Shown here: positions 1,839 through 39,304 of the stretch, one piece after another | How the letters are laid out: every line of letters starts with the position of its first letter | Numbering within the stretch: position 1 is the stretch's first letter | Assembly (NCBI GenBank): GCA_022072055.1 | Contig: JAJVIK010000008.1 | Coordinates: 40,111-104,110, forward strand | Source: a bacterium | GTDB lineage: Bacteria > Hinthialibacterota > Hinthialibacteria > OLB16 | Reading direction: 5' to 3' | DNA: 64,000 nucleotides | Program-made: the position numbers and the translations under genes | The notes under the pieces: generated by a model | What the model saw: only the letters and a program-made list of their open reading frames with translations | The model's database searches: none | Told to the model about the DNA's origin: nothing

Positions 1839-1911
1839 AAGATCGGGCTTGATTCCGAGGCCCAAACCGGTTTATGATGATCTTATAGTCACCACAATGG
1901 AGGCCTGATCT

Positions 1912-2808
1912 GTGTCGCGGATTCCTTCTCCAATCGCAGTGAGAGCGGGTAAGAATGGGAACGGAACACCCCTCTTGGTGGCTCCAAAGGAGAGAAAGGT
2001 CTCGAGGCGGAACGGGAAGAAGATCGCGTTTGGATGGTACGGAGGCAAGTTCAGCCACCTTGACTGGCTCCTTCCGTTACTCCCATCCTGTCACCACTAC
2101 TGTGAACCATTTGGAGGCTCCGCCGCCGTCTTGATCAACCGCTCACCTTCCCCAGTTGAAACCTACAACGACCTCGATGGAGAGGTGGTGAATTTCTTCC
2201 GAGTCCTTCGCGCGAAAAAAGATTTGTTGATTGAGGCCATCGGCCTGACACCCTTTTCCAGGGAGGAGTTCTTCATTGCTTGCCAAGATCACCTAGGGAA
2301 GATTTCAGATCTGGAGCGCGCTCGACGGTTTTTTGTGCGCGCGCGTCAGGTCCGCACGGGACTTGCGCAAACCGCCTCGTTGGGCAGGTGGGCGAATTGC
2401 AAGAACACCAGCCGCGCGGGGATGAGTGGCGTGGTTTCCCGATGGCTCGGCAGTGTCGAGGCGCTGCCGGAAATCGCAATGCGCCTCCTCCGCGTCCAGA
2501 TCGAGAATCGTCCGGCCCTTGAATTAATCGATCTCTATGACAGCTCGGAGACCCTCTTCTACTGCGATCCGCCGTATCCCCACGAGAGTCGTGGGGATGA
2601 TAAAGCTTATGGCTTTGAACTAACTGATCACGAACACAAAATGTTGGCGATGCGGCTTATGTCCCTACAGGGCATGGCTGCGGTATCAGGATACCGCTGT
2701 GATCTGCTGGATGATCTTTATCGGGATTGGAGATGCATTGAGGCTCCGGTCAAACACTGTCATTCCATCAAGAAACCTCGCCAGGAGGCGCTTTGGGTGA
2801 ATTACTGA
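1912..2808 (+). CDS. Dam-family (D12 class) N6-adenine DNA methyltransferase
   Basis: FGWYGGK (cf. Dam LKWAGGK), CEPFGGSAAVLIN (FxGxG-like SAM motif), catalytic YCDPPY motif. GTG start with GGAGG RBS. GC visibly lower than flanks. Confidence 0.8.
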   Translation: MSRIPSPIAVRAGKNGNGTPLLVAPKERKVSRRNGKKIAFGWYGGKFSHLDWLLPLLPSCHHYCEPFGGSAAVLINRSPSPVETYNDLDGEVVNFFRVLRAKKDLLIEAIGLTPFSREEFFIACQDHLGKISDLERARRFFVRARQVRTGLAQTASLGRWANCKNTSRAGMSGVVSRWLGSVEALPEIAMRLLRVQIENRPALELIDLYDSSETLFYCDPPYPHESRGDDKAYGFELTDHEHKMLAMRLMSLQGMAAVSGYRCDLLDDLYRDWRCIEAPVKHCHSIKKPRQEALWVNY

Positions 2809-3911
2809 TGCAGGAGAAATATCCCTCTGGATTGATGCCCTCGGCTCGAGATCTACTGTTGCTCGAATGGACCCGTTGCTTGGTACCAGGGAGGACGGCT
2901 CCGAAATCCTCCATTCCGGGTGGGATTCAGGATGCCATTGAGCGATCCATAAACTCCACGACGTTGACCTATCGATATGTCCTGCCCACTCAAGTTCTCG
3001 CAAAGGCGGTTAACCCCGACCTCGACTGCAGGTCTGTCCAGGCGGGATCAGGACTGGAAGGCGCCTTCGACGCACGCAGCCTGTGCCACGATGTAATCGT
3101 TGAATTCGACCGAACGAACCACAGCGTGTTGGGGGGATCAAAGGAACCGTACTTGAACAACCCCTTGCGGATTCCCTCGATCTCGGGCGAAAACCGGAAA
3201 GCCCAGAAGAACAAAGATGGGTTTGACGACCTTTGTGTAGTCCTCGAATATGTCCAACAAAACCGAGGAGAGGCGACTGTTGTACTACGTGAAATTCTAA
3301 ACGCCATCCGGCGACGTCTCGACGCGGTCTCAATTGTCTATCCGGTGCCAAATAGGGTGAGCCTCAAGCAAGTTCAGGCGATCATGCATGAGTTCCTGAG
3401 AGATCGGACTGGTGGAAAAAGGCTTCAAATCATCACCGTTGCACTGTTTCGGTGCATCGGGAGCCGATTCAATCTGTTTCACCGGATTGTGGCCGGGAAG
3501 GTCAATGCATCAGACGCAAGCACTGGAAATGTTGCGGATCTCGAGTGTCTTGACGATATGGGGAATGTAGTCATGGGTGTGGAGGTTAAGGATCGTCAAC
3601 TTACCTTGCGCCAAATTGAGGACAAACTCCCCGGAGTCCGGAGCAAGGGCGTTCGAGAGCTGCTCTTCCTGGTTCAAGGAGGGATTTTTCCGGATGATAC
3701 CGGCCAAGTGGATGACCTCATTGAGAGAGAGTTCACGACGGGACAAAACCTGTATGTCCTCGAATTCCAGCGTTTCGTGGAATCCTGCCTGGCTCTCCTT
3801 GGCGAGACCGGCAGGCGGGGATTCTTGATCGAGGTGGGAATTGAGTTGGATCGACAAAGAGAAGATATCTCACATCGTCGGAAGTGGAAGGACCTGCTCA
3901 CTCGGCTATGA
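2808..3911 (+). CDS. Putative type II restriction endonuclease partner of the Dam-like methylase (PD-(D/E)xK-like motif); otherwise hypothetical
   Basis: ATG overlaps the methylase stop as TGATG, implying translational coupling. Candidate nuclease motif DDMGNVVMGVEVKD (D-x8-E-x-K). Same lower-GC island as the methylase. Confidence 0.45.
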   Translation: MQEKYPSGLMPSARDLLLLEWTRCLVPGRTAPKSSIPGGIQDAIERSINSTTLTYRYVLPTQVLAKAVNPDLDCRSVQAGSGLEGAFDARSLCHDVIVEFDRTNHSVLGGSKEPYLNNPLRIPSISGENRKAQKNKDGFDDLCVVLEYVQQNRGEATVVLREILNAIRRRLDAVSIVYPVPNRVSLKQVQAIMHEFLRDRTGGKRLQIITVALFRCIGSRFNLFHRIVAGKVNASDASTGNVADLECLDDMGNVVMGVEVKDRQLTLRQIEDKLPGVRSKGVRELLFLVQGGIFPDDTGQVDDLIEREFTTGQNLYVLEFQRFVESCLALLGETGRRGFLIEVGIELDRQREDISHRRKWKDLLTRL

Positions 3912-4064
3912 AACCATCATGACAGACCTCCCCATGACGCGGCTACAGGGCAGCATACATGGCATCTCCTACCACTACGACCTCCTCGATGACGTGCTGT
4001 ATATGAGGCGGAGCGAGGACCGGAATAAAGCACCCCGCGCGGAAGGAACCCACAATACCCCCCC

Positions 4065-5801
4065 TCACTCCGTCCCTTCATCCAAGATCACCGCCCGTCC
4101 CGGGTGAGCGGGGATGCGCAAGTCCTCCACCAGTCTTTGGATTTCGAGCGGGGGCGGAGGGGTGAGGCGTGAAACCAGGAAGGTCACGGCGAGATTCATG
4201 AGCATGCCCACCGCGCCGATCCCCTGCGCCGATATCCCGAAGAGCCAGGGGCGCATGCCCATGAACTGGCAGCCGATGATGTAATAGGCGGTGAAGCCGA
4301 GCCCCACGACCATCCCCGCGATAGCGCCCTCGCGATTGGCGCGCTTGTCGAAGATTCCGAGCAGAATGATCGGGAAGAAGCTGGCCGCCGCGAGCCCGAA
4401 CGCAAAGGCCACCACCTCCCCGACAAATCCAGGCGGGTTGATTCCGAAGTAGCCCGCCACGCCGATGGCCGCGACCACCATGATTCGCCCCACGAAAACG
4501 CGGTGGGCCTCATCCGCCTTGGGGTTGATCAGTCGGAAGTACACGTCATGAGCGATGGAGCTGGAGATGACCAACAGGAGGCCCGAGGCGGTGGACAGCG
4601 CCGCGGCGAGTCCACCGGCGGCGACAAGCGCGATCACCCAGGGGGCCAGGTTCGCGACCTCGGGGGTGGAGAGCACGATGATGTCGGGATCGAAATAGAC
4701 TTCGTTCCGACTTTCCGGATTGGGCTGGTCAAACAGAGGGGTCTTCCCCTTGAGCGCGAAGGCGTTCCCCGGGGCGATGGTAAGGCGACCATCCTTGTCC
4801 TTGTCGATGAACGCGAGGAGTTTCGTGGATTGCCAACTCCGCGCCCATTCAAGGGCTTGGACCTCCTCGAGGGTCTTGCCGTTCAGAGAGGAGATCAGGT
4901 TGTATCGCGCGAAGGCGGCAAGCGCGGGGGCGGTGGTGTAGAGCAAGGCGATGAACAGAAGCGCCCATCCGGCGGAATAGCGCGCGTCCCGGACCGAGGG
5001 AACCGTGTAGAAGCGCACGATCACGTGCGGCAGACCCGCGGTTCCGACCATGAGCGCCAAAGTGATGCAGAGCACATCAAGCATGGACTTGTTCGCGAAG
5101 GGCTTTGTGTATTCCGAAAAACCGAGGTCGGTCTGGATCGAGTTCAGTCGGGACACCAAGTCCGAGGTTGTGAAGGCCAGCTGAGGGACAGGATTCCCGG
5201 TGAGCATGTGGGAAATGGCGAACGCGGGAATCAGGTACGCGGTGATGAGAATGGCGTATTGGGCCACTTGTGTCCAAGTGATCCCCTTCATGCCGCCAAG
5301 AACCGCGAAGAAGGCGACGATCACCATGCCGACAATCACCCCGACCGCGATGTCCACATGCAGGAACCGGCTGAAGACAATCCCCACCCCCCGCATCTGG
5401 CCGGCGACATAAGTCAGGGATACAAAGATGGCGGCGATGGCGGCCACGATCCGAGCCGGTGTCGAATAGTAACGGTCGCCCACGAAATCCGGAACCGTGT
5501 ATTTCCCGAATTTCCTCAAGTAGGGGGCGAGGAGCAGCGCCAGGAGCACGTATCCCCCGGTCCAGCCCATCAGATAGATGGAGCCATCGTAGCCCATGGC
5601 CGAAATCAGCCCCGCCATGGAAATGAACGAGGCGGCGGACATCCAATCGGCGGCGGTGGCCGCGCCGTTGGCGAGGGGCGGAACGCCATGGCCCGCGACA
5701 TAGAATCCGGAGGATTCCCGGACGCGCGAGCGCCACCCGATGTAGAGGTAAAGCAGGAAGGTGATCGTGACGACCAGATAAGTCCAGGCTTCCGTGGTCA
5801 T
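4065..5801 (-). CDS. Sodium:solute symporter family transporter (ActP / VC_2705-like, possible acetate-cation symporter)
   Basis: 578 aa polytopic membrane protein. N-terminus MTTEAWTYLVVTITFLLYLYIGWRSR...FYVAGHGVPPLANGAATAADWMSAASF is typical of SSS/ActP. Preceded by a DUF4212 small subunit gene. Confidence 0.8.
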   Translation of the reverse strand: MTTEAWTYLVVTITFLLYLYIGWRSRVRESSGFYVAGHGVPPLANGAATAADWMSAASFISMAGLISAMGYDGSIYLMGWTGGYVLLALLLAPYLRKFGKYTVPDFVGDRYYSTPARIVAAIAAIFVSLTYVAGQMRGVGIVFSRFLHVDIAVGVIVGMVIVAFFAVLGGMKGITWTQVAQYAILITAYLIPAFAISHMLTGNPVPQLAFTTSDLVSRLNSIQTDLGFSEYTKPFANKSMLDVLCITLALMVGTAGLPHVIVRFYTVPSVRDARYSAGWALLFIALLYTTAPALAAFARYNLISSLNGKTLEEVQALEWARSWQSTKLLAFIDKDKDGRLTIAPGNAFALKGKTPLFDQPNPESRNEVYFDPDIIVLSTPEVANLAPWVIALVAAGGLAAALSTASGLLLVISSSIAHDVYFRLINPKADEAHRVFVGRIMVVAAIGVAGYFGINPPGFVGEVVAFAFGLAAASFFPIILLGIFDKRANREGAIAGMVVGLGFTAYYIIGCQFMGMRPWLFGISAQGIGAVGMLMNLAVTFLVSRLTPPPPLEIQRLVEDLRIPAHPGRAVILDEGTE

Positions 5802-5807
5802 CGCGCG

Positions 5808-6071
5808 TCACTCGTCCGCGTGGTAATCGTGATCCAATCGGTCCATGCGGCGCGCATATATAAAGATGAGCGCCACGAAAACATAGATGGCCCCCTGCTG
5901 CGCGACCCAAAACCCGAACGGGACTCCAAGGAATTTGATTCCGTTAAGCGGACCCACCAATAGGACTCCCAAGCCGAGCGAAACCAAGCCCCACACCGTG
6001 AGAAGAGCGGAGATGAGTCTCTTGTTGGCGGTCCAATAGCGGATCAGGCGATCTTCGCCTCGATAGTCCAT
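5808..6071 (-). CDS. DUF4212-type small membrane subunit associated with SSS symporters
   Basis: 87 aa, two predicted TM helices. Lies 6 nt upstream of the symporter on the same strand, the usual DUF4212 plus SSS pairing. Confidence 0.65.
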   Translation of the reverse strand: MDYRGEDRLIRYWTANKRLISALLTVWGLVSLGLGVLLVGPLNGIKFLGVPFGFWVAQQGAIYVFVALIFIYARRMDRLDHDYHADE

Positions 6072-6195
6072 AGAAGCCAGCCTCCCTGAGTTTCAAGACA
6101 GGGGACAACCCCCATTGTCTCCAAGCTGAGGGGAGACCGTAATCGAGCGGCCACCATATTGCAACAACAAATTTCCCGGAAATGCGCCAAGAGGA

Positions 6196-8586
6196 TCAGG
6201 ATGAGGAGCGCTGATCCATGTCGCTGGGGGGGGCCGATGTCGAACCGACTTGGATCTTTCCCTCTTGGATTAATCGTTCCAGTTCCTCGGGGTGGCGCTC
6301 TTCCATCGCGTGGACGGAGAGTTTCCCGGTGATCCAAGACATGTCCATCGGATATTCCTCCGGGTGGAACACGACGAAGAAGAAGTGCCAGATCAAAATC
6401 GCGAGGGTCGCGAGCCACGCCTCATAGTAATGGATCACCGCGCCGACCTCGACCCAGATTCTGGAGATTCCCAGGTGAATCGCGGCCGCCGCCGGGAACC
6501 ACATCAGCAGACCGGTGACGATCATGACCACGCCGCCCCACAGGAACGCCCAGTATTCGAGTTTTTCCGAATAATCGTAGCGGTCGAACTTGGGTTTCTC
6601 GTTGGAGAGTCCCAGGTGATAGGCCAAGTTCTTGAACAGGTCGGTGAGGTCCCGGAAGCGGAACATCAACGCCCAGAACTCGGAGCGCCCCTTCTTGGTG
6701 AAAACGATCGAACCGATATGCCACGCCAGAGTGATGATCAGGAGCACGCCCGCCGAGCGATGAACCCAGGAGCGGAGGGTCTCGCCCAGTCCCAGATATT
6801 CCTGCATCACCCGGGTGAAGATCGAGTCGGGGAAGGACAGCGAGAATCCCGTGATCACCAAGGTGATGAAGGACAGGGTCAACATCAGGTGCTGGATCAA
6901 GGCCACTTTGGGGAAGCGTTGAACATGGGGGATGTTTCTCTGGAGACGATACTTGTCGCGGATATGGCGGAAGATAATGATCAGATTGTGGAGCAGCATT
7001 CCTCCGATGGAGAAGGCGATCAGGAAGATGTAGATCTGGCGAACAAACCAGGTGGCCGTGGCGATAAAATGTTCGCGTGTGTCCGGATCGACATGGACCA
7101 TCCCGGCCACAAAGGCGGGGGTGACATTCTTGTGGCACTTTCCGCAAGTGTGGATCAGGTTGTCCGGGTGGATTTGCGAGGCCGGGTCGCTGGAGGGAAG
7201 GATGTTATGAACGCCATGACAGCTCGCGCAGTTGGCGACGGTGGTGTCTCCGAGCCGACCCGCGAGACCGTGGTAGCTTTCGAGGAAAGTCTGAACATTG
7301 TGTGATGGCAGACCGTATTTCCGATTAACCACCACCGAATCATGGCAGCGGGCGCACACCTCTTTCGCCAGGTGAGTGGAATACACGGGCGATTCGGGAT
7401 CATCATGGGCCAAGATGGTGTGTTCGCCGTGGCAATCGGTGCAGACCGGCGCCTCGCGCACCCCTTTCCTGACCGCCTGACCATGGACGCTCTTCATGTA
7501 TTCGTCGTGGATTTGCGTGTGCTGATGGCAGTTCCCGCAGGTGTCGGCGATGTGCTCGCGATTCACCGAGGAGTCGGGGTTGTTGCCGGCGAGGATCGAG
7601 TGGTGACCGTGACAATCCTGGCATGCCGCGGCGTCATCATTGACCCCGGAGAGGAGCGCGCGACCATGGACGCTCTTCCGGTACATCGTGCTGGGGGATG
7701 AGATCGGGATATCGTATTTCTTCACAATCTCCGGGTTCTCGTGACACTTGCCGCAGGTTTCGGCGATGTGCAGGCGGCTGACCGTGGAGCGGCGGTCCTC
7801 GGGCGACTGGATCTGATGCTCGCCGTGACAGTCGGTGCAGACGGGGACATCCGGGTTGCCGTCCTTGGCCAGGCTCCCGTGGACTCCCCCGTAATACTCC
7901 TCGAGCACATCCTCATGGCACTGCCCGCAGGTCTTGGCGACCTTCTGGCGGCTCACCGTGGATTCCAATGAGGTGGCGGGCTGGATGTCATGCCACCCGT
8001 GGCAATCGTTGCAGGTGGCCGCGCGCGAAGTGACATCATGGACATTCGATTGGCCATGCACGCTGATCACATAGGTCTCAATGGTCTCCCCGGAGGGGAG
8101 CGAGCGCTGTTCGATAAGGGCCTGATCCTCATGGCACTGGATACAGGTTTGCGCGAGGTTATGGTGATGAACCTTGGAGCGATCATCCGAGGACGGATAG
8201 ATCTGGTGCGAACCATGGCAGGACACGCACGAGGCGGCCTCGCCGGGGAGCCCATCCGAGCGCGCCATGCCGTGAACGCTTGCCTTGTATTTCTCCAATT
8301 CATCCTCATGGCAACCCGCGCAGTTCACCGGGGGGAGGATCTCCCCGTGTGGGAGATCCTCGATCTGGTCATGGCAATCCGTGCAGGAAAGATCGGCGTG
8401 AACCGAGCCTTCCCAGGAGGCAGGCGTGATCAGCAGGGTCGCGGAGGCCGGGACGGTCAGGTCGAACTCGGAGGGATCGCCGTGGCAAAGCAGGCAATCG
8501 GAGTCCTCGAAGGCTTTTCCCAAACAGGGACCGGCCAGCGGAAGAAGCAGTGCTCCAAGGATCCACCTCTGATTCACGCGCCTCAT
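6196..8586 (-). CDS. Multiheme c-type cytochrome (15 CXXCH) fused to C-terminal b-type cytochrome (FdnI/HydC-like) membrane domain; CbcL-like architecture
   Basis: Signal peptide MRRVNQRWILGALLLPLAGPCLG. 15 CXXCH motifs counted. C-terminal about 300 aa has multiple TM helices with conserved His (RHIRDKY, WHIGSIV, IWHFFFVVFHPEEY). GGGAGGA RBS. Confidence 0.8.
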   Translation of the reverse strand: MRRVNQRWILGALLLPLAGPCLGKAFEDSDCLLCHGDPSEFDLTVPASATLLITPASWEGSVHADLSCTDCHDQIEDLPHGEILPPVNCAGCHEDELEKYKASVHGMARSDGLPGEAASCVSCHGSHQIYPSSDDRSKVHHHNLAQTCIQCHEDQALIEQRSLPSGETIETYVISVHGQSNVHDVTSRAATCNDCHGWHDIQPATSLESTVSRQKVAKTCGQCHEDVLEEYYGGVHGSLAKDGNPDVPVCTDCHGEHQIQSPEDRRSTVSRLHIAETCGKCHENPEIVKKYDIPISSPSTMYRKSVHGRALLSGVNDDAAACQDCHGHHSILAGNNPDSSVNREHIADTCGNCHQHTQIHDEYMKSVHGQAVRKGVREAPVCTDCHGEHTILAHDDPESPVYSTHLAKEVCARCHDSVVVNRKYGLPSHNVQTFLESYHGLAGRLGDTTVANCASCHGVHNILPSSDPASQIHPDNLIHTCGKCHKNVTPAFVAGMVHVDPDTREHFIATATWFVRQIYIFLIAFSIGGMLLHNLIIIFRHIRDKYRLQRNIPHVQRFPKVALIQHLMLTLSFITLVITGFSLSFPDSIFTRVMQEYLGLGETLRSWVHRSAGVLLIITLAWHIGSIVFTKKGRSEFWALMFRFRDLTDLFKNLAYHLGLSNEKPKFDRYDYSEKLEYWAFLWGGVVMIVTGLLMWFPAAAAIHLGISRIWVEVGAVIHYYEAWLATLAILIWHFFFVVFHPEEYPMDMSWITGKLSVHAMEERHPEELERLIQEGKIQVGSTSAPPSDMDQRSSS

Positions 8587-8606: not shown

Positions 8607-11441
8607 CTATCGGTAGCCGAAGAGCATCGACCAGATGATGAACAGGGCGAGCGTCAAGCCCGTGAAAAGCGCCAGGAATCCGAAGAGTCTCGCCCAGAAG
8701 AGGAATTCCTTGCTGGGCGGCGGAACGGTCATCTCCTCAAGCTTCCCGCTTTCCTCCAGTTCCTTGTACAGATCGGGTTTATCCCTTTTCAATTCATCGG
8801 CGGGAACACAGCCGGTGAACATCACCATGTCCATGGGGAATTTATCGGGGCGGAAGTGGGTGTTGAAGAAGTGGATGGTGAAGATGAAGCCCACCGCGAG
8901 TAGCGCTTCATCGCTGTGAATGATGGTTGCCACGTTGATGATCCAACCCGGCAGGAAACGAGTGAAGAATTCCGGGAACCAGAGGATGAAGCCCGTGGAG
9001 CCGATGATGGCGATGCCCCAGAAGACCGCGAGATAGTCGAACTTCTCCCAGTAGGTCCACATGGCATAGCGCGGACGCGGCCCCATGCGCGCGAACCATT
9101 TGAGGGATTGGAAGAACTCGACCACATCCCGCCATGTGGGCGCGAGGGTGCGCGTGCCGCTGAGCATTCCCTTCCAGGTCAGTCCCTTTTCACGTTTCTT
9201 CTTGATCACATAGCCAAGGTGGAAAGCGAAGAGGATCACCATGGTGATCGCGCAGATGCGATGAATAATCCCGGCGGAGTTGAAGCCGCCCAGGAGGTTG
9301 GAAAGCCACACGGCCCACGGCATGTATGAAAACTTGAGTGTCATGCCGGTGAGGGCCAGTCCGAAGAAGGAGAGGATCATGATGAAATGGAACTGGCGCG
9401 TGACCCGGTCGAAGCGGAGAATGTATTTCTCCTCCGCCGGGCGCGGCTCCCGCTTCTTGCGGCGTTGTTCGACAAACGAGCGCGGGATCCAAGCCAGGGT
9501 GTGGATCCCGAAGAACGCGAAGGTCCCTATCAAGAGGCCGGTCATCGCCCAGAAGGTCCAGAAGAGCGCGGGGTATTTGTCGGGATCGTGGTGGGTGGCG
9601 TGGGTCAGATACCCGGCGAACTGGCGATGGGAGCCGGGATGGCACTGGGCGCAAGTTTCCACGATGTTCTCCCGGCTGAGCCTGGAGTTCGGGTCGGTCA
9701 CCGGAAGGATGTCATGCGCCCCGTGACAATTGTGGCACTTGGCGGCTCCGGCCGATCCCAGCTTGGAGACCTTGCCGTGATAGGTGTCGAAATAAGTCTC
9801 CGCCACATCGGCATGGCATTTCCCGCAGGTCTCCAGCATCCCCAATTTGAAAGCCTCGGCGTCGGTGCGTGAAATGGTGTGGGCGGTGTGGCAATCGCTG
9901 CACACGGGAAGCGGCTGCTCGGACTTGCTGACCAACGGCGAGTGGATGCTCTCATCGAAGGTCTCCTGGATGCCGTGATGGCAGGCCCCACAGGTGTTCC
10001 GAATGTTGGCCGGATTGACGCTCGATTCGGGATCGGTCTTCGGAAGGACGAGGTGGGCGGTGTGGCAGTCGGTGCAGACCGCGGTGACCAGGAGCCCGCT
10101 TTCGAGCAAGCCCTTGCCGTGGATGCTCTCGGAGTAGTTCTCAATGATCTCCGTCTGACTGCTGTGATGCCGCGCCGCGGCCTTGTGGCCTTCCTGGTGG
10201 CACTTGCCGCACAGGGTCGGCACGTTGTTGGGGAAGGTGGGTGAGGCCGGATTGGTTTGCGGAAGAGTTCCATGGGCGCTATGGCAATCGAGGCACACCG
10301 GAGCGTCGGGATCACCCTGCTTTGCCAACTGACCGTGATAGCTGCGTTCATGCTGTTGGACCTGCTCGGCGTGACAGATCGAGCAGTCCACTTTGGCGAC
10401 GACGGTCTCACAGGGTCGGTCGAGGCGCTTGTCCACGCCGGTGTGGCATTGGGCGCAGCGAACCTTGGAGTGAGTCGAACCGGCGAGGAGGTGCTGATCC
10501 ACGGAGGGGATAGGGCCATGCGCCGTTTCGATGGGCTGGGCGTGACAAGCCATGCAGTCACGGTCGCTGACCCCCTCCTCGTAATAGACCTTGCGGGCAT
10601 CATGGGGTTGGTGGCAGTCGATGCAGATCGGAATCTTATCGGGTTCTTTCTCCCAGAGCGCGCCCTCGATCACCTTGCGGTGAACTTGCTCGATCAGGGC
10701 ATGGCACTGGGTGCAGGTCTTGACCACGTTTTCCCGGTGGATGCTGGAATTGGGATCGGTGTGAGGGAGCACGTTGTGCGCGGTGTGGCAGCTGGTGCAG
10801 ACCGCGGTGACAGTCAGCCCCTTCTTGAGGACCCCCTCTCCGTGGATGCTCTCGGCGTAGTGTTGGAGGATGTCGTGTTGGGCGATGTTCCGTTCGCGCG
10901 CCACGGGAGCGTCCTCGGCGTGGCAGGCGCCGCACATTTGGGGGATGTTGATCGGATTGGTTCGGGCCTCGGGGCTGGCGCTGGGGATGATGTCATGGCC
11001 CCCGTGACAGTCCCAACAATGCGGGGCGAGCGGGTCCTTTTTCTCCACGGCCATGCCGTGCAGGCTGTGGCTGTACACGGTCTGTTCGTCATCGTGGCAG
11101 CCGGCGCAGTTGGGCGGCGGGAGCTTCTCGTCGTGGGGAAGATCCTCGATTCCGTCGTGGCAGTCGGTACAGGCGGCCTCCTGGTGGACCGAGCCTTCGA
11201 AGGACGCCGAGAGGATGAAGAGCCGGGCGGACTTGGGATCGGTGAAGTCCCAGTTGCTCGCCTCGGAGTGGCAGAGCATGCAGTCTTCGCTATCGAAGTC
11301 CTTGGCAAAAGCGGTCTCGGCGCCGAGGAACAGAAGCAGAGGAAGGCCGATCAAAAGGAAGCGCCGCGTAGGGAGCCGCGTTCTCCCGTCGGAATCGAGC
11401 GCGCGTGGAGCGCGCGTGGGGCGGTGGGGATCGTCATCCAT
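8607..11441 (-). CDS. Multiheme c-type cytochrome (19 CXXCH) fused to C-terminal b-type cytochrome membrane domain; CbcL-like paralog
   Basis: Signal peptide RRFLLIGLPLLLFLGAETAFA. 19 CXXCH motifs counted. C-terminal TM region with His-containing helices, alignable with the C-terminus of the 6196..8586 product (shared FRPDKFPMDMxxxTG motif). Confidence 0.8.
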   Translation of the reverse strand: MDDDPHRPTRAPRALDSDGRTRLPTRRFLLIGLPLLLFLGAETAFAKDFDSEDCMLCHSEASNWDFTDPKSARLFILSASFEGSVHQEAACTDCHDGIEDLPHDEKLPPPNCAGCHDDEQTVYSHSLHGMAVEKKDPLAPHCWDCHGGHDIIPSASPEARTNPINIPQMCGACHAEDAPVARERNIAQHDILQHYAESIHGEGVLKKGLTVTAVCTSCHTAHNVLPHTDPNSSIHRENVVKTCTQCHALIEQVHRKVIEGALWEKEPDKIPICIDCHQPHDARKVYYEEGVSDRDCMACHAQPIETAHGPIPSVDQHLLAGSTHSKVRCAQCHTGVDKRLDRPCETVVAKVDCSICHAEQVQQHERSYHGQLAKQGDPDAPVCLDCHSAHGTLPQTNPASPTFPNNVPTLCGKCHQEGHKAAARHHSSQTEIIENYSESIHGKGLLESGLLVTAVCTDCHTAHLVLPKTDPESSVNPANIRNTCGACHHGIQETFDESIHSPLVSKSEQPLPVCSDCHTAHTISRTDAEAFKLGMLETCGKCHADVAETYFDTYHGKVSKLGSAGAAKCHNCHGAHDILPVTDPNSRLSRENIVETCAQCHPGSHRQFAGYLTHATHHDPDKYPALFWTFWAMTGLLIGTFAFFGIHTLAWIPRSFVEQRRKKREPRPAEEKYILRFDRVTRQFHFIMILSFFGLALTGMTLKFSYMPWAVWLSNLLGGFNSAGIIHRICAITMVILFAFHLGYVIKKKREKGLTWKGMLSGTRTLAPTWRDVVEFFQSLKWFARMGPRPRYAMWTYWEKFDYLAVFWGIAIIGSTGFILWFPEFFTRFLPGWIINVATIIHSDEALLAVGFIFTIHFFNTHFRPDKFPMDMVMFTGCVPADELKRDKPDLYKELEESGKLEEMTVPPPSKEFLFWARLFGFLALFTGLTLALFIIWSMLFGYR

Positions 11442-22724: not shown

Positions 22725-25700
22725 TTACTGCTGAGGGCTGGGCCTGACGATCTCCAGGTCGCGGGCCACATCGAAGCCGAAGAAGGGCGCGTCGTGGATC
22801 TTCGGCGCTTGGCCGCCGGTGTGGACTCCCCCGAAGCCATCGAGGACATACAGGCCGATAACCGCCCCGACCTCATCGATCGAGAGCTCCAAGTCACGCG
22901 CGATGTTGAATCCGAAGAACGGCACGCCGCGGGTGGTGTCCGCGACAAAGTCGCCATCGGTGATTCCTCCGGTGACAATCTGCCCGAACTTCGAGAGCAC
23001 AAAGGCCCCCTCGACCGCCAGCGTGGACGGATTCTTCACCAGTTCGATGTCGATGAAGACATCCTCATCCGGCAGGAACGGCGGAGGCGGAACAATCGCC
23101 GGGGCCGCGCCGAGGTTGGAGACTCCGCCTCGGCCATCCAGGATGTAACCGCCCTTCACGGTCCCATCCGGCTGGTAGTAGAGCTCCAGGTCGCGCGCAA
23201 GGTCGCCGCCGAGGGCCACGCCGATCAGCGGATCGGCCCCGCCGAAGGTGTAGATGCTCCCCGCGCCATCCAGCATGTAGACCCCCACCTTCGGACCGGG
23301 CTGAGTCGGAGACACCTCGATGTCCTTGGCGTAATCGCCCGAGAACGGGGTGAACCCAGTCTGGTCGACCGGTAGGACATCACCAAGGCCCGCAATCTGG
23401 CCGGTCCCGGTCATCCGGTAGAAGCCGGTCGGGGAGGCGGTGAATTCGGGCAGGGCCGGATCGCCGACCACGAAGCCGGTGTCCAGAGCGCCATTGGCGC
23501 GATAGAAGCCCGGCTCGAGGTCACGCGCCACGCCATCCGGGAGGAAGGTCGGTTGGAGCGAATCCGCCACCCCCTCCAGGCCGTTCCGCATGGTGACCCC
23601 ACCGAAGGCGTCGAGGACCGCGTAAGTCACGATCTCCACCGAGATCGGGACAATGGCGCTCTTGTTGCCGGCGAGGTCGACGGAGCGGACATAGACCGTG
23701 TCCCGCCGATCCGGGAACAGGTATGCGCCGCTGATCACATCCGGCTGCCTGAGGAGAGGTCCGATGTTGACCGCGTCCCAGGCTCCGTTGTCATCCGAGT
23801 AGAAGTTCCCGAACACCAGGACCGCGTTCAGATCGGCGGAGACCAGAACCCGCGAATGCCCCTCCACCGCGCGGTTCATGCCGATGATGTAGGCGTCGGT
23901 TTGCGGGTTCTGGGAGACCACGTAGATCTTGGTCGGATCCGGGTTGGGAATCGCGACATCCAGCGGGAGGCGCGCGGGCTGGGATTCGTTACCGAACTCA
24001 TCCTCGGCGGTGAACCAGACTGCGGCCGTGCCCACAACCGCGGGCGGATTCACCGAGTTGTCGGCGTGATTGTCGCCGATTGAGGTCTCCGGGAAGGAGC
24101 CTGGGGTCGGCACGCTGTTGAAGCCGCCGGCCGGGACCAGGATCGGGAAGCCGGGCAGCTCGCTGTTGAGGGAAGGCTCGTTGTAAGCGTGGAGCCACAG
24201 GTCCTCCTCGCCCTGACCAACCGCGCCGCGACGCCCGCGAACGGTGTCGTTGAACGCCCGTCCGCGCTCCACCAGGACAAACTCATCCAGGTTCGGAGTG
24301 GCCGGCGGCACTCGGTCGGCGGTGTCGATTTCGACGATCTCGCTAACATTGCCGTGCTCGTCAATGGCGACCACATAGCTGATCGGAGCGCCCACGCGTC
24401 CGACATCGATGGCCTGGAACGCTCCCGACCCATCCGAGAAGGCCACGCCAAGCAGCGGAGTCCCAAGGATCGAGTTGGTGAAGTCCAGAACCGAAGTGCT
24501 GAACTGGATGGTGCAGTTCGACGGAACCGCGCCCTCGATGCCCCGGATGGTGTTGTGATTCGGGTTGTCGGCGTTGAAGAGGATCCGCTCGGCATCCGGA
24601 GTCGCGATCGAGATGTCAAAGGTGAGGCTCACCGCGGTCGACCGATTGCAGGCCGAATCCTCAGCCACCAGGTACATGCGTTCGAATCCGGCCAAGTTCG
24701 CACCGACTTGGAAGTTGAAGCCGAGGGTCGAGGCGCTCCAACCGCCGGTGGCGTTGGCGAGCTCGATCGGCGAATACCCGCCGCCGACCTCAAGCAACAG
24801 GTCGGGATCGGCGAACAGGCGCACGCGAGCGGTGTCCTCCGGATCCACCGCGCCGGGGAGGCCCTCGATCAGGTCTTCGCCCGTTCCGAGCTGGTGAAGA
24901 ACCACGTTCTGGAGGTCAACCGGCGGCGGCGGAACGAGGTCGTTGACCGACCTGCCGTTTTCGCCATCCAGTACGAGCGGCGGCCCGAAGTTGAAGGCCG
25001 CGTCGCTGCACGCGATCCACAGAACCTCATACAGGTCATCCCCGATCGAGACCGGACCGAAGGCGCCGCTGGCGTCCGCGACGGTCGTGGCCACAAGCTG
25101 GGTCAGATCGAAGTCGGAGTAAATCTCCACGGTGCAGTTCGGTTCCACCGCTCCCGGAAGACCCACAACCTGGTCATCCGAGCCGGGGCAGGCCGACAGG
25201 ACTTCCACCAGATCTCCGACCGGAGCGTCCGGCGCGAAGATGTCGTTGAAGAGGCCGAATGGGAAGCTCAGGTTACCCGCCTCATCTTCGCTGGCGAGGA
25301 CCACGAACGGGTTCTGGTTATCACCGACTCGCAGGTCATAGAAGAAGCCCAGACGATCGGTGCGGATCGCGTTGTCCTCACGGTCGATCCGGTTGTTCAG
25401 GTAGGCGTCGGCGTACGCGCGGACGACGGTGAACGGATCCGTGAACCCGTAGATCGTGTCCTCGACTCCGGGCGGATTCTGGACCACGGCCACCGCGAGG
25501 AATTGCGGGCCGACCACGTCGTTGATCGCGGAAGCGATCACGTTCGAGGTGTTCCCCGCCTTATCAACGGCGCAAGCCAGGACCTCCTGGACCTTGTTGT
25601 CGCCGATTCGGACGCCCTCGATTCGGAAATCGTCACCCGGCACTCGCTGGGCAAGGATGCGGGCGGTCGGCGGGATCTGGACTCCGACGCCCGTATCCAC

Positions 25701-28700
25701 CAGGACGCTTGAGCGGCGATTGGCCTGATACATGAGAATCGTCCCATTCTCCACCGAGGCGGTGACCAAGCGACCGTAGGTGTCGATCACCGGACCCACC
25801 ATGGTGGCGGCGGGTTCGAGGAGACTGGCCTGAGCCAGCACCAGCGCGCCGTCGGTCCCCGGACGGAGCTCGGAGACGCGCTGAGGCACGATCCGTTCGC
25901 CGAGGAAGTCGAGTCCGGTCTCGCCGAAGTGCAGGCCGCCGCGACGGTCGAGGGCGAGACCCGCGGGTTCGGCCAGGTTGACCAGGACCAGGTTCAGGGT
26001 GGAGGTGGTCAAGTCAAACGAGAACACCTGACCGCTGAACGGATTCCCCGGAGTCGCAAGCAGCGAGATATAGAGGGTGGACACGCCATCAAAGGCCAGC
26101 CCACGTCCCTGCTCGGTGATGCCCGCGAGCAGCGGGGTCAGCGTGGCGAGCGCCGTGTCGTAGGCGAACACCTGGGCGCCCGATTCCGTGATGAAATACA
26201 GGACATCGGTCGCGCCGAAGGTCATGCCCGCAACCGGGGCCGGGATTGCGAAGTCGATATCCTGGAGCACCAGGCCCGTGGTGGTCATCTCGGTCAGACG
26301 GACCTGGGATGGGCTGCCCGGATTCCGGGAAGCGACCCACAGATTGCCTTGACCGAGATTGGAGACCGCCAGCCCGGTCGGCTCCACCAGACCCGTGTGG
26401 ACCGTGTTAAAGGTTCCGAACTGATCGAGACGGTAGATCACGTCATCGGCCCCCATCGCGACGCCGTCCCAGTTGCTGAAGTAGACGGAGCTTGTGGCGT
26501 CAGCCGCGAGACCGTGGAGGTTGAAGTTCGGAGCCGTGGTGAGTGTCCCCGGAGACTCGCGGTTGAGGGTCGGAGACTCGGTGAACACCTTCACGCACAC
26601 CACTTCGTCCACCTCGGCGGAGTCGATGTCGATCTGGACATCGACCTCGTCCTCAACCCTCGGGAAGGTTCCCGGCTCTTGCGGGAACTGCTCGAAGATC
26701 GAGAGTTCGGTGATCAGCGGAGCGGTGATGTCGATGTGGGCGTGAGCGGCGCCGCTGCTGTTCCCGGCGGCGTCGCAGGCGATCACATAGACAGTGTCCA
26801 GCGAACCCGGAGTGAAGCTGTTGTTGTCGCCGATATAGATCGGTCCGACACCCGGGCCGGTGACCGGAACAAGCGCGATCAGGCTGGTGAGGGCCACATC
26901 CTCGTAGACCTTGACCAGGCTGGTGTCGGCGCTGACCCAGGCGGTGAGGGTGTCATCGACGGGCACGCGCGTGCAGCCGCTTCCGATGGTGTTGTTGTGG
27001 ACGGTCACCTGCGGCTCGCCCGGTGGGGCGGTGTCGTTGCCGATTGCCAAGTCGTCGCTCTCATTGCAGGCGGCGTCCGCGACGGTCACATAGAACGTGG
27101 AGCTCAAATTGTCGCCCAAATTGAGCGTCCAGCAACCATCCGCGGCGCCATCGTCGATATCCTCGACGGAGTCGACGACGTTGAAGAGGCTATCGTCGCG
27201 GTAGACCACCACGGTGACCGCATCCGGATCGGAGGGCTTGGCGATCAGGATGTCATCCGTTCCGGGCGGATTCGAGAGAATGGTCACTTCCGCGCTGGTG
27301 AGCGGCGCGGGCGGGACAATGTCGTTCACGACGTTCACCGACGGGCTGGTGTTGCCGGAGAAGTCGGTCACAACCACCCAGACATCCTCGTAGAGGTTCG
27401 CGCCGATGGGAACCTGGAAGAAGCCGTTGCCGACGAAATCCAGCTCCGAGCCGATCAGGTCGGTTAGACCCGGGTCGGCGAAGGCCCACGCTTGGACCAC
27501 ATCCGGATCGTTCGGATCAGGGCGGACGATCACATAGTCATCCTCGTGGAAGCAGTTGGAGTCCACGGTGACAGTCGGCGTGGCGGGCGGGGTGAAGTCG
27601 TTGGCCACCGCGAACCCATTGTTGGAGATGTCCGCGACGTTGCCCCACGGATCGACACCCAGGACGACATAGCTGTAGGGCGCGCCGCCGATGGTGTCGT
27701 TATCCAGGAAGAACGTTTGCGGATCGAAGCCTCCGCCGTTGTAGAGCGAGGTCGCGGCCTTGAAGGCGACCACCTTGATGTTGTTGAAGATGGTCGCGCC
27801 TGGGGCCCAAGCCACCGGACTTTCGTCGATGTTGCGGATGGTCAGTTGGTCTCCCGAGAGGCTGTAGTTCGGGAGGTTGACCGGATCGACGGACTCGGTG
27901 GCGGATGGGATCAACCGGTTCCGCGTGGTGTCGATCACCTTGAGGAGGTCCACGTCGATGGCCGAGGTGGCCAGCGTGAGGGTGACCGTGGCCGCGTTCG
28001 GGGCGAAGCAGATCACCGGGCAAAGCGCTTCGGAGATCTTCTCGTTGTCGAAGTGGCTGAGGAACTCGATCGGGTCCCCGCCGAGGCGACGGTAAATGTC
28101 GTAGCCGGTCACGCCGACCTGATCATAGGGCGTGGAATCCCAGAACAACCCGATATCCTCGGAGAAGGGATCGGGATGCGCCTGGAGGGTCTCGATCGGC
28201 TCGGGCGGAGTCGTGTCGAAGGCCACCGCGGTGGCGTCGCCGACCAGCACGCTGGTGGAGATCAGCGAGCGATTCCCCGCCGCGTCACGCGAAACAACCG
28301 CATAAGAATAGGAGTGGCCCGGCAGCGCGGTGTGGTCCACAAAGGTGCGGTTATCGGTGAGGTAATCCACGAGCACCACATCCGTCGGCGCGGGAAGAAC
28401 GGTTCCCGTGATATCAATGGTCTCTCCGGTGGCCGCGAGGACCTGATAGGACTCGCCGGTGGTCTTGTTGAACACACGGCTCACGGATCCCACATTGAGC
28501 GGATCCATGAAGAGCACGAGCAGGTTCGGGGTGGCCGCGCTGATCGAGGCTTTTTCGGCGACCACCTGAGTCGGCTGCGGACGAAGGGTCCCGGTCGGGG
28601 TGGTCATGTCCGGAAGGATGATGTTGACCACGGTCCCGATCAGGAGGTCCGGATCGCGCACGATGTCTCCATCCGGCTCACTGACCTCGCTCTCCGCGAT

Positions 28701-31700
28701 GGGGCCGGAGCGCTGGTCGCGGAAGATCTCCCAGACCGAGATCGCGATGTTGTCGCCGGTGGGTCGGACCGGGCCGCCGCCGACCGGAACGCTCGGGATA
28801 TCCCACGAAAGCAGGATGCCGTCATCCGGCTCGCCGGCCCGGACGCGCAGGTTGGTGACCGGGTACGGATCCACCAGGTCATTCGGGGCCGCCGCGACAA
28901 TATTCGAGATGTTCCCGGCGAGACCCACGGCAAACGGCTCGCAGGCGTCATTGGTGGCGAGCGAGTTGCCGGACCAGCCGTTTCCAGCCTGGTCAAAGGC
29001 CACGATGAAGTAGGCGTAGGTCCCCTCGGGCGGGACGCTGGTGTCAAGGAACTCGGTGATCGGCTGACCGTTGCCGTCGTAGGCGCAGATCACGCCGATC
29101 AGGTCGAAGTCGGTGAACGGATTGGCGTCGAGAACATCATCCACCGTGGTTCGGGTGCGGTAGATCTCGTAGCCGATTGTTCCCACGTTATCGATGGGGA
29201 TGTACTCCCAATCGAGGCGGACATCGGGGGTGCCGAAGAGCGCCTGGGCGGTGATGATCGTCCTAGTCGGCGGGATCACGTCCAGATTGATCAGCGGCCC
29301 GAAGACCGGATCGAGGCTGTTCCCGGCGTGGTCGCGGGTGATGGTTTTCAAGTAGAAGTAGTCATCCGAGCCGGGCGTGGTCGCGGGCAGGGAGGACACA
29401 TCCCACACAAAGGTCCCGGTGGCGCAGCGAAGCGCGCTGGCCTTGGAGAGCGGGATATAGCCGCCTCCGGTCACGTCCACTATCTCGGTGGCCACATCGA
29501 TGAAGTTGCTGAAAGCAAGGAGGGCCGGGGTGGCATCCGCCGGACCCGTCGCATAGTACAGCTCCACGCTGGCCACGCCGGAGGGCGAGAAGTCGATATC
29601 CGGCTCAATGCCCGGATTGAACTCGTCGCAGGAGGTCGCTTGCGGAATGACCGGGAAGGCCAGGGTGCCGCCCAGGATGTTGGGGAGTTCGGCCAGAGTG
29701 CCGGGGAAGGCGGTGTTGAAGGCCTCGTCCCAGGCGTCCATGTTGAACATCTCGTTGCCGGTCCACACCAACGGGTTGGTGTAGGACCACAGCAAGCCGC
29801 CGCCGGTGCCGTTGGCGATGATATCCTCGGCCGGGTAATACGGGTCGGGGTCATCGGCCAGCGGAGTCTGGTTGTCGATGATGAAGCGATCGAGAAGGAC
29901 CACGGTGGTGGCGTTGGCGCAGTTGTCGGTGGCGCTCACGACGAAGTCGATGTAGGCGCTGCCGGTGGCGGGCAGGGTGAGGTTGGCGGGCGCGAAGCTC
30001 GCGGTTCCGGTCACCACGCCATTAACCGCGGGGGCGAGACTGAGCGTGAAGGTGGCGTCCGTGGCCGAGCCACCCAGCACGCTGAACAGACCGGTGAGCG
30101 TGGGCGGATCGGTGGTGACATTCAGGCCCGTGCCGAAGTCCTCAAAGCGGACGGTAAGATCCACCGTGGCCGCCGAACCGCTTGTGGCGGCGAACGGCAG
30201 CGAGGCCAAGTACGGCACGCGCGGCGCGCGGATATCCACGGTGAAAGTGATCCCACGGATCAACATGCCGGTGGCCGATTCGACATTCGGAGTCGGAACG
30301 GCGCCGTCATAGGCTTGCGAGATCACGCGAATCTGGCCTTCGCCGTCAGGCAGAATCTGGCGCAGCGTGGCCTCGGTGATCGTGGCGCAGGCGATGGCCG
30401 CCGAGGTCGGCAGGACACTGGTGTCGGGGAAGGTCAGCAAACCACGCCGGACCAAGCCGGTGGTGATGTCGGTGGCGGTGTTCACCAAGAGCGCGCTGGC
30501 GGGTCCGACTTCCACGTCGTAGGCGAACAGATCCACCCGCGACATTGGGCAGGGGGCCGTGTCGGTCACCGCCGCCGCGAGCTTGTAGGGCAAGTCGTTC
30601 AGGCAGATGGTGCAGTCATACAGGGCCGGGGCGGCCGCGACCGCGCAGACCGTGGCGCCATCCGGAATGAAGAAGGTGTTGAGCTCAAAACCCGCGTTAA
30701 AGGCGGCCTGCTCAAAGGTGGTGGCCACCTCCCGAATCACGTTGCCCATCGGCTCGATTCGACCATGGAACAGGCGGGTCCCGCTGAAGCCCATGCCGAC
30801 CGTGCGGAAGGAGGGGAGGCCGGGCGTAATGAAGTTGGTTCCGCCGGGGAAGGATTCGAAGAACCGATCCCTCGGCGGCGGCGCTCCGGCGGGATCAAAC
30901 CGTTCGGCGAAGAAGGTTCGTCCGAAGGCCCCCGAGCCGACCGCGACCACCTCAAGCTCCGCGCCCGGCAGCGGGAAGAAGGCGGGCTGAGCGCCGAGAT
31001 ACGCGCCGGTGGCCGCATCCAGCACATAGAGCTGGTCATCGCTGGCCTGCTCGTTGATGTACAGCCGGCCGCCCTCCGCGCCCATTCCGGCCACCACGGT
31101 CACGCTCGCGGGCAGAGTTAATGTGGCGGTGAGAACGATGGAACCCGGAACGCTGACGTCATAGACAAAGATGGTGTTCGCTCCGGAGGCGGAATTGGTG
31201 TCGCCGTAATAGAGCCTGTCGTTGTCATAACCAAGCGCGCAGCCGGTGGCCGAGGAGATCTCCGCCGGGAGCATCAGGCTTCCCACGACCTCCGTGTTCA
31301 AGAGGTCGCTGTGGTCCGGATCGATCTCATACAGGATGGTGCGCGAGACCGAGGCGATCTCGGTGACCGCCGCGATGAACAGGCGCGAGCAGATCGGCTG
31401 GGATTTCGGTTCAAGCGGGTCGTAGTAGAAGGTTTCGGGTGGGGAGCCGCCGAACTCGGAGTTCACGTTGGCCAGATTGATGGCGCAATCCCCCGCGGAG
31501 ACATCGATGCCGAACCAGCCTGGCTGAAGGCCAATGGCGACCGGATCGACGAGCGACGCGAGAAGGATGCCCCCCTGGTTCGGACGATCCGGCAGGGTCC
31601 CCGTGACCGATCCGATCAGCGCGCCATTCTGGTAAATCGAGGCCGCGTAAGTGCAGATCCCGGAGTCAATCCGGTAGCCCATCAGACCCGCGTCATTGGC

Positions 31701-34700
31701 GGTGAACAGGACGCCGAATAGACCATGGAAACACTCCCCGACATACGAGTTGAAGGTGAACGGATCCACCACATTGAACAGCGCCACGGCCGGATAGGTC
31801 CGGTCGATGGCATACAGGCGATTGTCCGAGGGGCCGCGAGTGATCCCATTGCAGCCGCCGAAGGCCTTGGCGCTCACCCCAAACGGGTCGCCATCACCGC
31901 AGAACGTGGCGCTGATGGGAACGTTATACGCCCACGCTCCGGAGGCATCCAAGGGGAGTCCGACCACCTGGATGGAGGTTCCCTGGAACGCGAAAGAGGG
32001 GCCGATATCGAAGGTGTCGTTAAAGATCTCCCAGTGCGACTGATCGGAGACCGAGGCCTGTGTCGGCGCGCCGGGAAGACCCGAAAGGTTGGTTTGCGCG
32101 CGCTCAAGACCATTGGTCTGGACGCCGCCGGGGACATCCCCATAGCCGGAGATGTCTTGTCCGACCACGCCGGAGTTGATGCCCACCGCGCAGTCGAAGT
32201 AGGTCACGGCATTGGTGGAGACATAATCGAGCGCGACCGCGCCGGTGTTGTAGAGCGTGATGCTGAAGGTGTTCGTGCCGAGCGTGGAGTCATCCGGGAC
32301 TGTGTCGTAGTCGATGATGAAGCGGTCGTCGTACTGACGATAGGTTGTGGTTCCACCGCTTGCTCCGGAGCCGTCGATCCGGCTCCAAAGCCCCATGATC
32401 TTGGGTGTCACCGCGTTGACCAGGGCCTGGGTCGGGACACCCGTGGAGATCGTTCCGGTTCCAAACTCGACCAGACCGCGCGCGGAGATGAACACCGAGT
32501 TCCAGCAACGGCCATAGAAGGGGAACTCGAAGCCGTTGGTGAACGGAACCTCCACGATGCTGCTGGCGTTGTGGATCATCGGGTTGAAGACATCCACCGG
32601 CGAAACCGCAGCCTCGGTGGTGGCGTCAAGCGGGGGAAGCACACTCCCACCCGGTCCGGGGTACCACAGGTCCACGCTGTCCGCGGTGGTAACCCCATCG
32701 GCGCGCAGGAAGACCACGGTTTCGTCGGTCAAGTCGTGGATCACGCTGTAGGCCTCGAACAATCCGTTGAAGACCATGTCGAATGGCCCGCCGGTGTTGA
32801 TGTCCGGCTGAATCGCGGGCGCGCCGCCGCCGGGGGAGACGCCCACGAGGAAGCCGGTCAAAGTCAGATTGCCATATTCAATGACGATGGCGCCGTTCAC
32901 ATAAAGGGTCGCGGTGGCGCTGTTGGCCCCGAAGCTAAAGAACTCTGGAACGGATTCATAACGCACAACTGCCGCGCCCGAATACAAGTCCACGGAGACA
33001 GTCCCACCGGCGCCGGGGTTGAGGTCATCCCAGAACAAGGCAATGCGTGGGAGGCCATCCTCAAACTCCACCGGCGTTTCGCTGAAATCAGCGTCTCCGC
33101 CGCCGAAGGTGATGTACCCGTTGGACCCGACATACATGTCGGAATAGGTCCCGGAGTAGAACGGGAAGTTGAACGGCAGGTTGACCTGCGTGAAGGTATC
33201 ATCACTGAGCGACAAGGCTGATGTGGAGATAAACGCGCCCAGGCTTCCCGGAACCGCCGCCGCGCCGGTGGCGTAGATCACGGATCCCGCCAACCCGGTG
33301 ATGTCCACATCGCCGTTCACGATGGCTTCGTCGTGGTCCGCGATCTGAACGGGCGGGCCATTGAGATCCACGGTCACCTGGATCGCGTCGCACTGGGTCC
33401 CGTTGCCGACTTGGTCGGTGGCAAAGGCGATAATGTCATAGACGCCATCGCCAAGCGCGGCGAAATTGACCGAGAAGGCCACGGTTTCCACCATCGCGGA
33501 CACGGCCGAAGTGCCGGAAGCGACCACACCGCCGCCGAGGTTGCGGACTTCATAGCCGACCTGGCCCGGGCAACCGCCGGTGTCCGTGGTGGTGATGATG
33601 ATGTCGGTCGCGCCGAGAACGGTGTTGGCGTAGCTGATGCACGCGCCATCCGAGGGCGCGAGAAGGGCGCACTCCGGCACGGTCGGATCCAGGACATAGA
33701 TCTCCGGAACGGCGCCGGGGTAGGTTTCGGTGACATTCGCCACATCCCGCGCGCAGTCGCGCACGACCATATTCAGGCCGAAGGGAACCAGCGAGACGAC
33801 GTTCAGGGTCACATTGCTGACAGTGGCGCTGTAGAACAGGGGACCATCATCGGGACCCCAAGGGAGGATGTCGGAGAGCGGCATCACCCCCACATAAATG
33901 TCCTCGGGGCCGATCGCGGCGACCTGCACTCCGCCCTGCCACACCTCCAGCTCCACATCGCAGATCCCGGAGTCGATCCGCCAGCCGGGAACTCCCACAT
34001 CGCTCAGGATGCCGTCGAGCTCCAGGGTCAGGTCGGAGCACCCTCCTGGAGTGACGTCCACATTCATGGTGACCGTCGGGTCGGTGACATCAAGGACATA
34101 CACCTTGTTGGTCGCGGGGCCGCGGGTGTTGGCCGTGCAGCCGCCGAATCCGAGCGCGCAAACGCTGAACGGATCGCCATCCGAACAGAAGGTCGGGCTG
34201 ATGACCAGGTTGGCCGACCAAGCGCCGGTGATCGGGTTAAAGGACCCCGGCGCGGTGAAGATCGTGCTACCCTGGAAGCCGATGACCGGGGTGACATCCA
34301 GGACGTTGGTGGCGTTGAAGACCTCATACTGGACCTTGTCGAGAACCGCGAACTGAGTGGCGGCGCCGGGAAGGCCGGAGATATCGATCGGATTCCTCAG
34401 CACCCCGTTGGTTACCAGCGGGATGGACTCATACCCATCCACCGGCTGGCCGGAAACGCCCCCAGCGACGCCGATGCCCACATTCGTGTCGGCGGCGGTG
34501 GAGAAATAGGTGATTGTGCCGTACTCGAATTGGACCGCGCCGGTGTTGTAGAGGGTGATGGTGATGTCGTTGATGTTCCCCGGCGCCCCGAGTGTTTCGG
34601 GAACGCTGTCGTAGATGACCTGGAAGCGATCATCAAACTGGCGATAGAAGGTTCCGCCGCCGAGGTGCCCGCCGATATCGGCGAAGAAGCCCATCACCTT

Positions 34701-39107: not shown

Positions 39108-39304
39108 GGCTTGCCTCCTTTGACTCATGTTCGGACCGCTTGAGTTATTCACAGGGGGTGTTGAAAACAAGGTGGGCGCGGCAATACAACAGTGACCAGA
39201 CACAGCTCGTCTCCTTCGATTCGAACCAAATCCCTCTTCCTCGCATTGACGCGCGGAAGAACCCCATCCCAGAACAACGGCAAAGAAAGGACACTGATCA
39301 GCGC

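Follow-up and report, generated by a model that had tools for sequence, protein, structure and literature searches.

A predicted two-gene type II restriction-modification operon pairing a SacI/EcoT38I-family endonuclease with a D12-class adenine methylase

Introduction

The restriction endonuclease SacI cuts GAGCT^C, and EcoT38I, from Escherichia coli TH38, cuts GRGCY^C. The family represented by SacI (Pfam PF09566) has already been assigned to the PD-(D/E)XK superfamily in two surveys (PMC2441816, PMC3424549). In this work we analyze a relative of these enzymes and its adjacent methylase in a stretch of 64,000 nucleotides (the window) from a bacterium of the Hinthialibacterota (assembly GCA_022072055.1, contig JAJVIK010000008.1, positions 40,111 to 104,110; all positions below are those of the window unless another locus is named). 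We read the locus as an intact, functional two-gene type II, most likely type IIP, restriction-modification (R-M) operon that was acquired horizontally, with a probability of roughly 0.85. The family of the endonuclease, the conservation of its catalytic residues and the persistence of the pair across phyla carry this reading.

The endonuclease

The R gene (2808..3911, + strand, ATG start at 2808) encodes a type II restriction endonuclease of 367 amino acids. The protein matched the Pfam model PF09566 (RE_SacI) with E=8.8e-39 and 134.5 bits, for a cut-off of 19.3, across model positions 32–274 of 276 (243 positions), and the PADLOC model REase_II with E=1.1e-22. Its sole sequence relative in the PDB is EcoT38I (7e8r; DNA complex 7edb), found by phmmer with E=3.4e-21. 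An AlphaFold2 model built on 27 relatives (predicted local distance difference test, pLDDT, 89.5; predicted template modelling score, pTM, 0.75) presents an alpha-beta-beta-beta-alpha-beta core at residues 204–289, and the Foldseek search with this model returned EcoT38I (7e8r and 7edb) at the top, with E=1e-15 and probability 1.0, followed by weaker matches to the PD-(D/E)XK enzymes MspJI, Ecl18kI and EndoMS. By homology and by its modelled fold, the nuclease is a member of the SacI/EcoT38I family with a predicted PD-(D/E)XK fold, the superfamily to which the first-pass annotation, made from the sequence alone, had already pointed.

That annotation had also stated that the 367-residue open reading frame (ORF) held no other recognisable family features, and had suggested that it might represent a new family of endonucleases or another type of effector linked to a methylase. 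Against this stand the extent of the PF09566 match, the homology to EcoT38I in both sequence and fold, and the name that NCBI gives to relatives at about 55% identity, 'restriction endonuclease, SacI family'; the absence of any matching NCBIfam model and a deposited record naming the protein as hypothetical are what the proposal has in its favour. We consider it refuted, and the assignment to the SacI/EcoT38I family is kept. The deposited record in question, 'hypothetical protein GHCLOJNM_01872 [bacterium]', describes a 372-residue version of the nuclease, whose start codon would be a TTG at 2793, in frame and four bases past an AGGAGG (2783–2788).

Catalysis is predicted to depend on D244 (nt 3537–3539), in the block ADLEC, and on E259 (nt 3582–3584) and K261 (nt 3588–3590), in the block VEVKD, all read on the + strand. 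They lie on consecutive strands of the model (E241–248 and E254–261), do not vary across the 27 aligned sequences, and each is matched by the identical residue in EcoT38I. The 27-sequence alignment has 42 invariant columns, all of which are, by definition, retained by the window nuclease. The string DDMGNVVMGVEVKD, in which a D-x8-E-x-K motif had been noticed at first, is indeed present at residues 249–262. However, its aspartate, D250, is variable among the relatives, and that starting point was rejected; since D244 is the invariant one, the catalytic aspartate is D244 and the motif of this nuclease is D-x14-E-x-K.

The methylase

The M gene (1912..2808, + strand, GTG start at 1912 and TGA stop at 2806–2808) encodes a D12-class N6-adenine DNA methyltransferase of 298 amino acids. 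The protein matched Pfam PF02086 with E=1.6e-18 and 67.8 bits (cut-off 22), which places it in the D12 class, and the PADLOC model MTase_II (PDLC03244) with E=2.1e-53; its best solved relative, a distant one, is DpnM (PDB 2dpm, E=3.6e-7). The three motifs reported earlier were all found: FGWYGGK at residue 40 (nt 2029–2049); CEPFGGS at residue 64, in which EPFGGS (residues 65–70, within nt 2101–2121) is the S-adenosylmethionine (AdoMet) motif I, FxGxG; and YCDPPY at residue 217, in which DPPY (residues 219–222, nt 2566–2577) is the catalytic motif IV. Motif I is thus N-terminal of DPPY, the order of the alpha-group. Among the best 120 homologues listed, identities ranged from 68% to 99%, and those carrying a name are called 'DNA adenine methylase'.

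The protein had been described as a Dam-family enzyme, which is correct in the broad sense of PF02086 and does not extend to orthology with Dam. It scored 67.2 bits with TIGR00571, for a cut-off of 114.85, and 26.3 bits with NF008152, for a cut-off of 441, and structures of E. coli Dam matched only its N-terminal ~70 residues. Because the methylase falls below these curated Dam cut-offs, GATC should not be assumed as its target, and the term Dam-family applies to it in the broad D12 sense only.

Gene arrangement and proposed mode of action

The two ORFs, at 1912–2808 and 2808–3911, are co-oriented, and the TGA of the M gene and the ATG of the R gene have one base in common (TGATG), exactly the overlap originally described. 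A Shine-Dalgarno-like GGAGG, read directly in the sequence (1899..1903, + strand), is separated from the GTG of the methylase by 8 nt. In the 73-bp spacer 5' of the M gene there is a promoter-like TTGATT-18 nt-TATGAT (1849..1878, + strand; 9 of 12 consensus matches); the match is to the consensus only, and chance would yield 1.1 sites of this kind over the region scanned.

In the proposed mechanism, the D12 enzyme would use AdoMet to methylate an adenine at N6 within a short, probably palindromic site, and so protect the host chromosome. The SacI/EcoT38I-family nuclease is probably homodimeric, as are other enzymes that cut palindromes. With Mg2+ bound through D244, E259 and K261, it would make a double-strand cut at that site in DNA lacking the methyl mark, such as that of an invading phage or plasmid. 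The order of the genes, M before R, and the overlap of stop and start codons would couple the translation of the nuclease to the prior synthesis of the methylase. Such coupling would make a separate controller (C) protein unnecessary, replacing the C-protein control of EcoT38I.

No helix-turn-helix controller gene was found beside the R gene: M and R overlap, the spacers around them measure 73 bp (upstream) and 153 bp (downstream), and the only short ORF that follows belongs to no family. This ORF (3919–4107, + strand, 62 amino acids) overlaps the 3' end of the neighbouring symporter gene, had no Pfam match and had no counterpart in 80 related loci. It was considered as a third gene, as a toxin-antitoxin remnant and as a controller, and was rejected in each role on these grounds; it is probably not a gene.

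Conservation of the pair among relatives

A scan of one genome per species gave 112 relatives of the nuclease, from which 80 loci (L001–L080) were kept. By tblastn, the orthologue of the window methylase was found directly upstream and on the same strand in 78 of the 80 loci, and in 63 of 74 junctions the M and R genes overlap or lie at most 20 nt apart. A type II R-M system is expected to have its R and M genes separate, side by side and linked in its relatives as well; together with the PADLOC type II models, this conservation supports the candidate system proposed in the first-pass annotation.

The hosts of the pair include Planctomycetota, Nitrospirota, Chloroflexota and Dehalococcoidia, Acidobacteriota and Bacteroidota, among others, as well as Zixibacteria, WOR-3, Armatimonadota, Kiritimatiellia and one archaeon of the Bathyarchaeia. 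An exhaustive HMMER search for the nuclease in 1.84 billion cluster representatives retrieved 760 relatives at E<=0.001, 137 of them at E<=1e-30, and judged by these sequence matches the family of SacI-like nucleases is well populated.

The two loci without the linkage, L075 and L079, come from metagenome-assembled genomes of Tepidisphaeraceae and hold 5'-truncated remnants of the nuclease, with no D12 methylase within 6 kb. The remnant of L075 (positions 6022–6804 of that locus) has 260 residues, starts at GGSAEPY and keeps the blocks ADLEC...VEVKD. Both look like decayed copies of the same R-M module.

The mean identity over the 74 loci with usable pairs was 69.6% for the methylase and 47.6% for the nuclease, with almost no correlation between the two (r=0.20). 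This gap would reflect either a faster evolution of the nuclease or a re-assortment of the two genes within the family.

These data also bear on whether the window copy is itself in decay, with a methylase still active as an orphan in an epigenetic or protective role and an endonuclease killed by point mutations that its motifs do not reveal. In R-M systems gained by horizontal transfer, the R gene is often the first to go, and decay would be consistent with the much stronger conservation of the methylase and with the two Tepidisphaeraceae loci that retain nothing of the pair but a truncated endonuclease. The R gene of the window, on the other hand, is full length, free of frameshifts and internal stops and of the size expected from its relatives (365–371 residues); it retains the invariant columns, the three catalytic positions included, and its tight junction with the M gene is intact. 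Decay is therefore improbable, and an intact operon remains the reading that we favour.

Origin of the locus

The GC content of positions 1850–3911 is 0.539, for 0.621 in the 64-kb window, and is the lowest of all 2062-bp windows (standard deviation 0.020). The entire island between the neighbouring genes (1839..4064), which comprises both R-M genes and the 73-bp upstream and 153-bp downstream intergenic spacers, has 0.543. A GC content of about 50% had been estimated by eye for the pair, with about 60% in the flanks; windowed GC confirmed the drop and corrected the value of the island to about 54%, with 62.1% for the window. The GC content at third codon positions (GC3) is 0.625 in the methylase gene and 0.59 in the nuclease gene, compared with 0.83 and 0.81 in the genes on either side.

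Low GC could instead reflect the amino-acid and codon needs of the two genes, the pair being ancestral to the lineage and not foreign. In 66 of 70 related loci, whatever the host, the pair had a lower GC content than the flanking sequence (mean −6.9 points), so that its composition could be an intrinsic property. Nevertheless, GC3, on which the protein sequence imposes little constraint, falls about 20 points under both flanking genes, and the pair is scattered over more than 10 phyla and one archaeon with identities of 42–61% for the nuclease and 60–79% for the methylase. The neighbourhood speaks in the same sense: the one flanking gene examined was the upstream ThuA-like gene, and the 24 metagenome loci carrying relatives of it (<=63% identity) shared no synteny with the window, with neither the R-M pair nor the other tested window genes beside the relative. 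The distribution of PF09566, described as patchy and with multiple transfers (PMC3424549), also disagrees with an ancestral pair. We consider an intrinsic, ancestral composition very unlikely.

Horizontal acquisition of the island, as first suggested from its composition, has good support: GC3 drops, the pair is scattered across phyla, and synteny is not shared. A point against it is that no empty-site comparator genome was found that would date the insertion. Among possible insertion signatures, no direct or inverted repeats occur at the borders beyond chance-sized 10–13-mers; no tRNA is present in the 64-kb window, and no integrase or transposase adjoins the pair.

Recognition sequence

The recognition sequence of the pair has to include an adenine. 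Because the characterised relatives cut GAGCT^C and GRGCY^C, a GAGCTC-like hexamer with N6-methyladenine (m6A) at the second base was the first guess for the target of the pair. GAGCTC occurs 31 times in the window for 36.2 expected (0.86 of expectation) and is not depleted, and its depletion in 783 kb pooled from host loci is mild, with a ratio of 0.72 compared with 0.86 in controls. The guessed GAGCTC-like specificity thus found no support. M.EcoT38I, in the work of Kita et al. in 2003, reportedly acts on cytosine, and a SacI-family nuclease of an Evtepia phage pairs with a C5 methylase. The lowest palindrome ratios in the 783 kb were those of CAGCTG (0.47) and CTCGAG (0.48); the controls avoid palindromes similarly in general, and no site can be assigned from palindrome avoidance. 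As to the modification described for this hexamer, the methylation of GAGCTC by M.Sgr13350I is 5-methylcytosine (m5C) (PMC11954522).

The Evtepia phage NatCom_42594 (PV036445.1; locus L083, positions 3785–6009 of that locus) encodes a nuclease that matched PF09566 with E=1.9e-56 and 192 bits, convergent with a C5-cytosine methyltransferase gene (PF00145, E=1.2e-64); both products are annotated as hypothetical proteins. This pair indicates that a SacI-family nuclease can have either an m5C or an m6A methylase as its partner, and with two kinds of partner in the family the target of the adenine-methylase clade may differ. We tentatively suggest, as a possibility held at somewhat less than even odds, that the D12-paired clade of the SacI/EcoT38I fold recognises a site other than GAGCTC or GRGCYC, with a specificity that has not been catalogued. 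If so, its members, with methylases at 58–79% identity and nucleases down to 24%, would form a natural series for studying how nucleases that have diverged strongly read a single target. An enzyme with a new recognition sequence could serve as a reagent, which would be a routine discovery of the kind collected in REBASE and not a conceptual advance.

Other genes of the window

The pair is flanked on the left by a ThuA/3-keto-disaccharide-hydrolase gene (333–1838, + strand) and on the right by a sodium:solute symporter gene (4065–5801, − strand), both assigned by Pfam. The symporter gene is preceded on its strand by a gene for a DUF4212 protein (5808–6071), and these two lie downstream of two tandem paralogous genes on the same strand (6196–8586 and 8607–11441, − strand) for multihaem cytochrome c proteins with c7, c3 and paired-CXXCH motifs, both fused to a C-terminal membrane domain of the cytochrome b561 type.

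A single ORF of 5492 codons (22725–39203, − strand) presents bacterial Ig-like domains (Big_3_3, Big_13) in the 2500 N-terminal residues scanned, and probably encodes a giant protein with a surface or adhesin role.

The second R-M gene of the window (49302–52589, − strand) encodes a fused type IIG endonuclease-methyltransferase of 1095 amino acids, which matched the PADLOC model REase_MTase_IIG (PDLC03630) with E=0 and contains the Pfam domains Eco57I and N6_Mtase. The gene is within the second lower-GC dip of the window (49–52 kb, GC about 0.58), and the ORFs neighbouring it had no PADLOC matches.

Comparison with described systems

Among described enzymes, EcoT38I is the best structural match of the window nuclease. 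The two are homologous over residues 44–330 (E=3.4e-21), and the D...E-V-K-D catalytic block is aligned residue for residue. They differ in sequence, with about 22% identity, and the whole-chain template modelling (TM) score of 0.41–0.43 between EcoT38I and the window model suggests another orientation of the domains. The EcoT38I genes are reportedly arranged head-to-head and accompanied by a C protein, as described by Kita et al. in 2003. C.EcoT38I is listed in PMC2632904. The window pair, in contrast, has an adenine methylase as partner, its genes are co-oriented and overlapping, and it has no C gene.

In relation to the SacI family as a whole, a PD-(D/E)XK family with SacI as its prototype, the window nuclease is far above the gathering threshold of PF09566. 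The Evtepia phage member is nearer to the Pfam model (192 bits) and has a C5-cytosine methylase, whereas the clade of the window has a D12 adenine methylase. As for the partner, Dam and DpnM (DpnII methylase 1), which are D12 methyltransferases of GATC, share with the window methylase the same Pfam family and the alpha-group order of motifs; it differs from Dam in falling under the cut-offs of the Dam models.

The pairs of the Agrobacterium tumefaciens plasmid pAtCFBP6626a (locus L082, positions 2972–4999 of that locus) and of a Halorussus caseinilyticus plasmid have the same gene order, strand and families as the window pair. Their methylases are 72% and 58% identical to that of the window, respectively, and their endonucleases 24% and 30%. 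Both pairs are plasmid-borne and lie beside transposase and integrase genes, while the window copy is chromosomal, with no mobility gene adjoining. They are annotated as 'DNA adenine methylase' and 'restriction endonuclease, SacI family', so that the architecture of an adenine methylase with a SacI-family endonuclease is already present in public annotation.

The gain from this comparison is one of annotation: the nuclease can be renamed 'restriction endonuclease, SacI family', and its partner can be given as type II N6-adenine methyltransferase. With no mobility genes adjoining, the locus cleanly exemplifies a minimal two-gene R-M module set between housekeeping genes; beyond annotation it matters little. 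Compared with the systems above, it is an ordinary defence module, an uncharacterised addition to the known SacI/EcoT38I family and not a new kind of enzyme.

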